Shown here: positions 1 to 977 of the stretch, piece by piece
Position numbering within the stretch: position 1 is the stretch's first letter
How the letters are laid out: each line of letters opens with the position of its first letter
Assembly (NCBI RefSeq): GCF_003334385.1
Contig: NZ_QOWN01000139.1
Source: Escherichia coli
GTDB taxonomy: Bacteria > Pseudomonadota > Gammaproteobacteria > Enterobacterales > Enterobacteriaceae
Length of the DNA: 977 bases
Strand: one strand, 5' to 3'
Notes under the pieces: generated by a model
Told to the model about the DNA's origin: nothing
Databases searched by the model: none
Seen by the model: only the letters and a program-made list of their open reading frames with translations
Translations under genes and position numbers: made by a program

Positions 1-276
1 GTCATAGGCATCACGCAGGGCGTTCTGGGCCTGATTCAGATAAAAATTACCCGACATGGAAATCTCGGACGACGCCCCCAGACCGTTGATGTTCTCCTGC
101 TCTGTGGAGCAGAGCGTGGTCACATCAATATCCTGTTTCTGACCGGCGGTGAACTGGACTTCCTTGATGGTGCAGTCCAGGCGCAGATATTCCGCCTTAT
201 CCATAGTTTCAGCAGTCGCCGGGGCAGATGAAATCATCACCTGCGTCAGCTGTGAGCGTTCATACAAAGCAGACAT
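1..276 (-). CDS. Probable major tail (tail tube) protein, N-terminal 92 codons; 3' end lies beyond the left window edge
   Basis: Not in the supplied ORF track because there is no in-window stop. ATG at 276..274 (minus) is preceded by a canonical AGGAGG (281..286 on +, read on minus) with a 4-nt spacer. My manual translation is MSALYERSQLTQVMISSAPATAETMDKAEYLRLDCTIKEVQFTAGQKQDIDVTTLCSTEQENINGLGASSEISMSGNFYLNQAQNALRDAYD, with no stop through position 1. The product call rests on synteny (the gene after the tail terminator in siphovirus modules is normally the major tail protein) and on the strong independent RBS. I do not recognise the sequence family with certainty. Confidence 0.6.
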   Translation of the reverse strand, partial: MSALYERSQLTQVMISSAPATAETMDKAEYLRLDCTIKEVQFTAGQKQDIDVTTLCSTEQENINGLGASSEISMSGNFYLNQAQNALRDAYD

Positions 277-280
277 TCTG

Positions 281-286
281 CCTCCT
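281..286 (-). promoter_or_regulatory. Shine-Dalgarno site (AGGAGG) for the downstream probable major tail gene
   Basis: Minus strand reads ...TTATTATCAGGAGGCAGA-ATG. This is a perfect 6-nt match to the consensus SD, 4 nt upstream of the ATG at 276. Confidence 0.7.
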
Positions 287-287
287 G

Positions 288-313
288 ATAATAAAAAACC
301 CGCACGCGGCGGG
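288..313 (-). terminator. Candidate Rho-independent terminator or attenuator hairpin between the tail-completion gene and the major tail gene
   Basis: Minus-strand RNA would read CCCGC-CGCGU-GCGGG (5-bp all-GC stem from + 299..303 pairing with 309..313, 5-nt loop 304..308), immediately followed by UUUUUUAUUAU (+ 298..288). The stem is short, so strength is uncertain. On the + strand the hairpin is followed by GTATGGGG rather than a T-run, so it looks unidirectional for the gene-sense strand. Confidence 0.4.
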
Positions 314-326
314 GTATGGGGTTTGT

Positions 327-342
327 AGAAAAAAAGAAAAAG
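327..342. repeat. Homopolymer-rich A/T tract (A7 and A5 on +; T5-C-T7 on minus) in the 3' UTR of the DUF3168 gene
   Basis: + strand 327..342 is AGAAAAAAAGAAAAAG. It sits directly after the DUF3168 stop codon on the minus strand and is not coding on the sense strand. Confidence 0.5.
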
Positions 343-687
343 TCACACCGTGACCTGAAACTCCAGGGTTGCACGGTAACAGCGGTTTTCCGGAATATAG
401 TCCTGCATTTCACTGACGGATCCCGGGGCCAGCAGCATTATGGCTTCACGGGCGTCCTGACGTATCTGACGCGCCTGCGTCACAGTCCCGGCATAAACGT
501 CTATCTGCACCGACACTGAGGACTCCGCCTGCCCGCCCATCACGTCCGCAGACACCGATGAAATCAGGCTGAAAACCACCCACGGAAGCGCCACCGACGG
601 CCTGCCATCCAGCAGGGGGACCACATACGGGTACACCTGCCCGCCGGCAAGATGCGCCAGATGAGGATACAAATCCGCCTCCGTCAT
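343..687 (-). CDS. DUF3168 / gp17-like phage tail completion (tail terminator) protein, complete, 114 aa
   Basis: Complete minus-strand ORF with ATG at 687..685 and TGA at 345..343. The ATG overlaps the stop of the upstream gene (ATGA at 684..687). The translation shows the pattern I associate with DUF3168 proteins: G-x-VYP...P......LPWVVF..IS......G.......VQIDVYA.T...A. The family call is from memory of the motif and would need HMM confirmation. The gene lies between a gp10-like gene and the probable major tail gene, as expected. Confidence 0.75.
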   Translation of the reverse strand: MTEADLYPHLAHLAGGQVYPYVVPLLDGRPSVALPWVVFSLISSVSADVMGGQAESSVSVQIDVYAGTVTQARQIRQDAREAIMLLAPGSVSEMQDYIPENRCYRATLEFQVTV

Positions 688-977
688 CGTCTCAGTACCT
701 CATCAATGGCCCGGTTCATCCGCGCAATCGCCACCTGAGCTGCCTGTTCACTGCGCACATCAAACGCCGGGCGCACAAACGGGTGCGGTGGCATATTCAC
801 GGTCCCCATTTCCACAAACCGCCAGTAGAAAGCATTGCGCGGGTTATCCGCCTTCATGGTGTTATCGCTGTTGCCGGTGTCCGGATTAACACCACGGATA
901 TGCACACCGGATTCCATCCCGCCATCGCGGGAACGCCGGGAAAGGACCACCACATTGCGGCGCAGTTTTCCCCTGCG
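684..977 (-). CDS. HK97 gp10-family phage protein (putative neck/tail component), 3' portion; 5' end lies beyond the right window edge
   Basis: Minus-strand ORF ending at a TGA stop at 684..686. The ORF track starts it at 953, but that codon is GTG and the frame stays open upstream to 977 (in-frame upstream residues ...RRGKLRRN, my manual translation), so the real start is probably outside the window. The translation contains the segment NAFYWRFVEMGTVNMPPHPFVRPAF, which matches the conserved aromatic-x-FxEFGT...MPxxPFxRPA core I recall for the HK97 gp10-like family (recalled, not searched). Its position immediately upstream of a DUF3168 gene is the usual siphovirus order. Confidence 0.75.
   Translation of the reverse strand, partial: RRGKLRRNVVVLSRRSRDGGMESGVHIRGVNPDTGNSDNTMKADNPRNAFYWRFVEMGTVNMPPHPFVRPAFDVRSEQAAQVAIARMNRAIDEVLRR

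Follow-up and report, generated by a model that had tools for sequence, protein, structure and literature searches.

A neck/tail gene junction of HK97-like lambdoid phages in a 977-base stretch of Escherichia coli DNA

The 977-base stretch of Escherichia coli contig NZ_QOWN01000139.1 analysed here (the window, by which we mean that whole stretch) almost certainly comes from the late operon, for virion assembly, of a temperate lambdoid siphophage of E. coli that resembles HK97. The fragment covers the end of a gp10-like tail completion (Neck1) gene, a tail terminator gene and the beginning of the gene for the major tail (tube) subunit, the last two being separated by a spacer that carries a hairpin resembling an intrinsic terminator. 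The phage group to which the window belongs includes many Shiga toxin 1- and Shiga toxin 2-converting (Stx1- and Stx2-converting) phages together with non-Stx relatives. We found nothing that contradicts this identification. An earlier first-pass annotation had seen no novel system in the sequence, and this judgement was correct: the window holds a very common and known HK97-type neck/tail junction of Stx-type lambdoid phages.

Neck and tail genes of the window

All three long open reading frames (ORFs) that match protein families lie on the minus strand and follow one another from right to left in the window. The first-pass annotation had placed a gp10-like gene, a DUF3168 gene and a major tail gene on one strand, and the family models TIGR01725, PF11367 and PHROG 158 confirmed each of these names; the order of the genes goes far beyond what chance would give. 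The gp10-like gene (684–977, minus strand) is cut by the window edge and is represented by approximately codons 52–148 (97 of 148), with its TGA at 684–686. The tail terminator gene (343–687, minus strand; 114 codons, ATG at 685–687, TGA at 343–345) is the sole complete gene within the window and lies directly upstream of the major tail gene (1–276, minus strand), which starts with the ATG at 274–276 and is cut by the other window edge after the first 92 of its 238 codons. The claim that the genes are tightly spaced holds for the first junction, where the stop and start codons overlap in the ATGA read at 684–687 (minus strand), but not for the second, where a non-coding spacer of 66 nucleotides (nt) intervenes (277–342, minus strand). 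The 4-nt overlap is of the arrangement usual for translational coupling.

The closest E. coli match to the window is found in NZ_CP027323, in a prophage referred to below as L001, at 99.9% DNA identity; the sole difference is one base at plus-strand position 321, within the spacer. The full-length protein comparisons reported here use this degree of relative, with 99.9% DNA identity to the window, in place of the two truncated genes. The annotations of L001, HK97 and further relatives show this 4-nt overlap as well.

The window fragment of the gp10-like protein scored 53.1 bits against the HK97 gp10 family model TIGR01725 of NCBIfam, the cut-off of which is 30.8, and matched PHROG 5 ("tail completion or Neck1 protein") at 4.8e-20, while the full-length relative reached 80 bits with TIGR01725 and E = 2.5e-10 with Pfam PF04883. 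The fragment is 74% identical to HK97 gp10 over 97 amino acids (E = 1e-55). The position of the gene is that of a neck gene as well, between a head-closure gene, seen in L001 and HK97, and the tail terminator gene, which is in the window.

The product of the second gene matched PF11367 (formerly DUF3168) with E = 1.7e-7 over residues 30–113 and PHROG 347 ("tail terminator") at 2.1e-17, and it shares 49% identity with the tail terminator of HK97, gp11. Its relatives are named in the databases either "DUF3168 domain-containing protein" or "tail completion protein gp17". Searches of the PDB by sequence, with phmmer and with a 63-sequence profile, returned no match for this protein, and the fold search alone succeeded. 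Its AlphaFold2 model (predicted local distance difference test score (pLDDT) 87.7, predicted template modelling score (pTM) 0.79) gave 32 Foldseek matches in the PDB at E <= 1e-3, with a best template modelling score (TM-score) of 0.77; practically all of the entries matched are phage neck, connector or tail-terminator proteins. Lambda gpU (3fz2, 3fzb, 8iyd), T5 p142, the T4 gp15 family, the R4C stopper-terminator complex, the Mu (trunk) terminator and the SaPI1 neck (9mu3_D) were matched at a Foldseek probability of 1.0. In several proteins hit in the database searches (P0052, P0057, P0122, P0125 and P0136), gp10-like, head-closure or tail terminator frames are fused; the fusions probably result from frameshifts or faulty gene calls in single assemblies.

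The 92-residue fragment of the major tail protein matched PHROG 158 ("major tail protein") at 1.2e-40 and its full-length relative did so at 1e-115; the latter is 68% identical to HK97 gp12 over 234 amino acids. The N-terminal tube domain of the full-length relative gave weak Pfam matches to Phage_tail_2 (5.5e-5) and Phage_TTP_11 (1.2e-4), and a sequence search of the PDB with the N-terminal 92 residues found no match. Beyond the window, the protein carries a C-terminal Ig-like (I-set) domain at residues ~145–235 (gene at L001 20702–21418). It is because of this Ig-like domain on a tube protein that some records and families bear the misleading labels "fibritin protein" and "Hoc-like head decoration".

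Genes 10, 11 and 12 of HK97 (NC_002167, 5880–7437) are the same three genes in the same order and with the same ATGA overlap as in the window. The assignment to an HK97/lambdoid late operon, proposed before from the gene order, is thus supported by homology, synteny and predicted fold alike. The Z-U-V genes of lambda have the same functional order of tail completion, tail terminator and major tail, and the predicted fold of the window protein matches that of gpU, although the similarity of the two proteins is undetectable by phmmer or by profile searches of the PDB and amounts to 12–17% identity in structural alignments. The same Type-1 neck logic is seen in SPP1 (gp16.1-gp17-gp17.1) and 80alpha (gp51-gp52-gp53), which are phages of Gram-positive hosts and whose sequence relationship to the window is remote.

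The hairpin in front of the major tail gene

The spacer between the tail terminator and major tail genes contains, at 293–313 (minus strand), an intrinsic-terminator-like hairpin followed by a U-run. The stem-loop CCCGC[CGCGU]GCGGG (313–299), with a 5-bp all-G-C stem and a 5-nt loop, runs into U6 (298–293); then come AUUAUC, the Shine-Dalgarno sequence AGGAGG (281–286, minus strand), CAGA and the ATG of the major tail gene. The hairpin lies ~22 nt from this ATG, and the Shine-Dalgarno sequence, preceded by a U/A-rich stretch, lies 4 nt 5' of it. The first-pass annotation had reported no repeat arrays or inverted terminal repeats; taken to cover inverted repeats at large, this was slightly wrong in that this 5-bp G+C hairpin with its T6 was overlooked; the direct and inverted repeats of the window are otherwise short and consistent with chance.

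Conservation of the hairpin was surveyed in 87 loci encoding relatives of the tail terminator protein (47–100% identical). A G+C hairpin with a U-run is kept in 85 of these loci, corresponding to 30 of 32 distinct spacer sequences, and in 19 of 21 distinct variants the distance from the end of the stem to the ATG is 19–24 nt. Since the 5' hairpin arms were out of register in the MAFFT alignment of the spacers, the stem pairs were tabulated by a script. The stem core CCGC/GCGG is conserved, pair 5 being C-G or A-T and pair 6 A-T or G-C, so that some changes are two-sided and compensatory, with loops that vary; stem variants include CCCGC/GCGGG, GACCGC/GCGGTC and ACCCGCC/GGCGGGT. The GGAG of the Shine-Dalgarno sequence is invariant across an alignment of 21 relatives. 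The hairpin is convincing because relatives keep the structure at the same place, and not from the statistics of the window alone; judging by its sequence and conservation, it is most likely a genuine, if putative, intrinsic terminator.

The HK97 record (NC_002167) bears a "putative terminator" at 6692–6719, at the same junction; the late operon of this phage has several such annotations. There, too, a hairpin with a U-run lies about 20 nt 5' of the major tail ATG, its sequence being ACCCGCC[AGAU]GGCGGGU as compared with CCCGC[CGCGU]GCGGG in the window; the HK97 spacer measures 59 nt against 66 nt in the window, which has an extra pyrimidine tract. A literature search on the HK97 late-operon terminators gave nothing specific in the collection of papers covered.

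Conservation among relatives does not extend to the part of the spacer that lies 5' of the hairpin. The pyrimidine tract CTTTTTCTTTTTTTC (328–342, minus strand), directly past the stop codon of the tail terminator gene, is polymorphic in length even between near-identical copies, and this variation looks like homopolymer slippage. The whole spacer is 58, 64, 65 or 66 nt long among near-identical copies, the 58-nt variant being a deletion form of some Stx2 phages, and the spacer variant of the window was found in none of the 86 other loci compared. A second, weak hairpin proposed by the terminator scan at 340–356 is probably a chance structure, because it is lost in close relatives (L009; a variant with a TAA stop codon). 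In L001, a look-alike hairpin with a T-run (GGACCGCTGCGGCGGTTT TTTTATTTTC; 14396–14413, plus strand) occupies the gap between the large terminase and capsid genes, ~20 nt ahead of where the capsid gene starts, so that an element of this type stands in front of each of the two high-copy structural genes.

In the spacer a U-rich tract is combined with a hairpin and its U-tail, and the lambdoid prophages of enterohaemorrhagic and enteropathogenic E. coli (EHEC and EPEC) are rich in small RNAs (sRNAs), many of them Hfq-bound (PMC4104026, PMC8550237). The spacer together with the end of the tail terminator gene might then be a 3'-derived Hfq-binding sRNA like those of the EHEC and EPEC prophages, a reading that we regard as very unlikely. 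One such sRNA, PasB, has been described inside a phage structural operon (bioRxiv 10.64898/2026.05.13.724894) and does belong to the tail module considered here, in the interval that separates the gpI-like gene from gpJ. In EPEC E2348/69, however, it maps to NC_011601 1466261–1466343 (L002 3262–3344, minus strand), ~7 kb downstream of the window homologue and on the opposite strand, and neither the PasB probe nor the full 83-nt PasB sequence is present in the window. As the sRNA of the window PasB was accordingly rejected, being located elsewhere in the module. At the same position, L001 (27771–27803, minus strand) retains only the terminator part of PasB, 33 nt with 88% identity.

A weak Rfam match to isrK could also be adduced, but its 17.7 bits are far under the gathering threshold of 50, and the alignment, which consists of the terminator plus insertions of 19 and 26 nt, was taken as chance. 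For AgvB, AsxR, Esr41 and STnc100, all cited under Rfam accessions in the same bioRxiv preprint as PasB, the Rfam scan of the window was negative, and no sigma-70-like promoter was found in the window. For the 131-nt region assessed, the predicted fold is no better than those of shuffled sequences (z = 0.16), and the lack of conservation 5' of the hairpin likewise argues against an sRNA. No RIL-seq entry for the spacer occurs in the examined parts of the E2348/69 tables, a weak negative, and the flanking genes are barely expressed: in the uninduced lysogen the E2348/69 orthologues of the late genes are near silent, with an RNA-seq baseMean of 4–9 (data from the supplement of PMC8550237). The EcOnc sRNA list of Tree et al. 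2014 was filtered for sites antisense to coding regions or more than 100 bp from them, and it is uninformative here because this filter excludes a 66-nt same-strand spacer.

Phage group and state of the source prophage

Close phage matches were sought with megablast and distant ones with the more sensitive blastn. The whole window was found at >= 95% identity in 92 phage records, mostly of 44–62 kb, the majority of which are Stx1a-, Stx2a- and Stx2c-converting phages along with non-Stx relatives such as the PPompW prophages. Over the whole window, DNA identity to the Stx/lambdoid tail modules (Lys8385Vzw, Stx1a and Stx2a phages, PPompW, phage 1717 and PP6 of E2348/69) is 96–99.9%; gene content and order are the same, and the differences are confined to point changes and to spacer length (58–66 nt). 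With blastn, HK97 itself was reached at 73% nucleotide identity across gp10, gp11 and gp12, as were HK75, HK544, mEp234, mEpX1, ECP1, Cronobacter ENT39118 and Klebsiella phages. Among complete E. coli genomes the window is present in 1245 of 5426, in 2924 places, with a median of one copy and a maximum of eight per carrier; six of the 2924 places fall on plasmid-class records rather than chromosomes.

The genes around the homologues of the window are those of a phage late region. In L001 the upstream genes are an antiterminator, lysis genes, small and large terminase, capsid, portal, adaptor (head-tail connector) and head closure, and those downstream are the tail chaperones G/T, the tape measure, M, L, K, I, J and tail fibre genes. 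Prophage PP6 of EPEC E2348/69 has the same arrangement, and so does the complete 51-kb Stx1 phage Lys8385Vzw, in which an integrase, a repressor, Q, stxAB and lysis genes are found in addition. The context that had been named as refuting a phage origin, either non-phage surroundings or a compact locus devoid of genes for capsid and packaging, was found in the flanks of none of the three.

The head genes upstream of this module are unlike those of HK97, so that the lineage of the window carries the module in a different genomic mosaic. In L001 (14435–19168) the gene for a 646-residue "major capsid protein" is followed by that for an 861-residue portal protein, and the order in HK97 is portal, protease, capsid; the portal region of Lys8385Vzw comprises two annotated ORFs. 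The presence of non-HK97-like head genes before HK97-like neck and tail genes points to the mosaic make-up of such prophages.

The following observations set limits to our reading of the window or of parts of it. The AlphaFold2 model of the gp10-like protein, built on a low-diversity alignment of 34 sequences, has a pLDDT of 41.6, and a profile of this protein compared with the only solved chain of the gp10 family, 9mu2_P of 80alpha gp51, gave a non-significant E = 0.53. As concerns the hairpin, the terminator scan returned two terminator-like sites in the window, compared with 0.8 +/- 1.0 in shuffled sequences, and in vB_EcoM-606R7 and PhiR49_2 the spacer is only 8 nt long and has no hairpin, which is therefore dispensable for the neck/tail module. 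Finally, the portal gene of L001, the closest relative of the window, is annotated as frameshifted (16584–19168), and for this reason a decayed prophage is quite possible as the source of the window copy.

The last point leads to the suggestion that the source is a defective or cryptic prophage remnant with the same genes, a copy which no longer makes virions alone. Many of the lambdoid prophages resident in EHEC genomes are defective, up to eight copies of the segment occur in one E. coli genome, and many of the IMG/VR matches are short fragments, all of which would fit a remnant. On the other hand, none of the three frames of the window is interrupted, each is nearly identical to its counterpart in complete phage genomes on deposit, and over 40 viral contigs encode the tail terminator protein with 100% identity. 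Taking both sides together, we consider a remnant possible but less probable than an intact source. The first-pass annotation had asked whether the element is a full prophage, a satellite or a domesticated structure; at the level of the family it can be answered in favour of complete temperate phages, while for this particular copy 977 bases do not decide it.

The two other origins named in that question, a phage satellite and a domesticated tail machine (a tailocin or a gene-transfer-agent-like element), appear to us to have a next to negligible probability. The SaPI1 neck is indeed among the structural matches of the tail terminator model, but this match arises only because SaPI1 uses the proteins of its helper phage. 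The copies in L001, PP6 and Lys8385Vzw all adjoin terminase, capsid and portal genes (three of the three flanks inspected), and none of the 92 matching phage records is a satellite. A search with the PADLOC defence models gave no match for the three proteins or for the three longest alternative ORFs (55–67 residues), which speaks against such elements and also bears out the statement that nothing in the window points to a defence island.

The remaining features of the window are equally unremarkable. Its G+C content is 57% and dips around the spacer. It contains no tandem repeats and no transfer RNA genes; the direct repeats form short families of two or three copies, of a kind that the tool flags as often due to chance, and make up no array, just as had been stated. 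The alternative and antisense ORFs of 41–67 residues matched no PHROG family. The reported absence of nuclease and ATPase motifs was also upheld, no Walker A, DEAD or PD-(D/E)xK pattern being present in any frame of the window; loose HNH pattern matches occurred in plus-strand frames without a gene only, and were judged meaningless.

Proposed roles and expression of the genes

Returning to the late operon of a temperate siphophage as the source of the window, the virion roles of the three products may be proposed from their characterised homologues. HK97 gp10 has been treated as the equivalent of 80alpha gp51, lambda gpZ and SPP1 gp16.1 (PMC11661146), and the gp10-like protein would be the tail completion protein that corresponds to them. 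In 80alpha and SaPI1 the protein of the gp10 family is located in the neck lumen, where it touches both the end of the DNA and the tape measure protein, and losing the homologue in lambda or SPP1 lowers infectivity 100- to 500-fold (PMC11661146). 80alpha gp51 has long helices at its N and C termini and a loop/beta insertion. The gp10-like protein would likewise be required for infectious tails that can be joined to heads, as are its counterparts in lambda and SPP1. The tail terminator, comparable to HK97 gp11, lambda gpU and SPP1 gp17, would assemble into a ring-shaped hexamer, capping the tail tube once this has reached the length dictated by the tape measure and offering a docking surface to the head; the hexameric role is proposed because the predicted fold is common to lambda gpU and SPP1 gp17. 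The third gene would supply the tail tube subunit, as do the genes of HK97 gp12 and lambda gpV.

The layout of the junction suggests how the expression of these genes may be balanced. The ATGA overlap would couple the translation of two low-copy proteins, while the tube gene, for which the need in copies is far higher, would be uncoupled from them and provided with its own strong ribosome-binding site, the AGGAGG behind a U/A-rich leader. During lytic growth, RNA polymerase modified by Q and coming from the late promoter would pass through the hairpin, and in the lysogen the hairpin would curb stray read-through transcription into the tail genes. A contribution of the hairpin to messenger RNA (mRNA) stability or to insulation of the ribosome-binding site is speculation.

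One may go further and regard the hairpin, U-run and Shine-Dalgarno sequence as a cassette that is more than a passive terminator, namely a module devoted to the expression of virion proteins needed in high copy. We think this rather improbable. Such a cassette may act by one or more routes, namely Q-dependent gating of transcription, formation of a stable processed mRNA end, or insulation of the ribosome-binding site from upstream ribosomes; release of a 3'-derived RNA of the neck genes is another possibility.

The genes, their order and the intergenic hairpin have all been described previously, and nothing in the window is new. The value of the check is thus mainly negative, in that the window needs no follow-up as a candidate new system, and consists otherwise in a correct annotation. 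The phage group that carries this junction is medically relevant, since its members often bear Shiga toxin genes and are spread among pathogenic E. coli.

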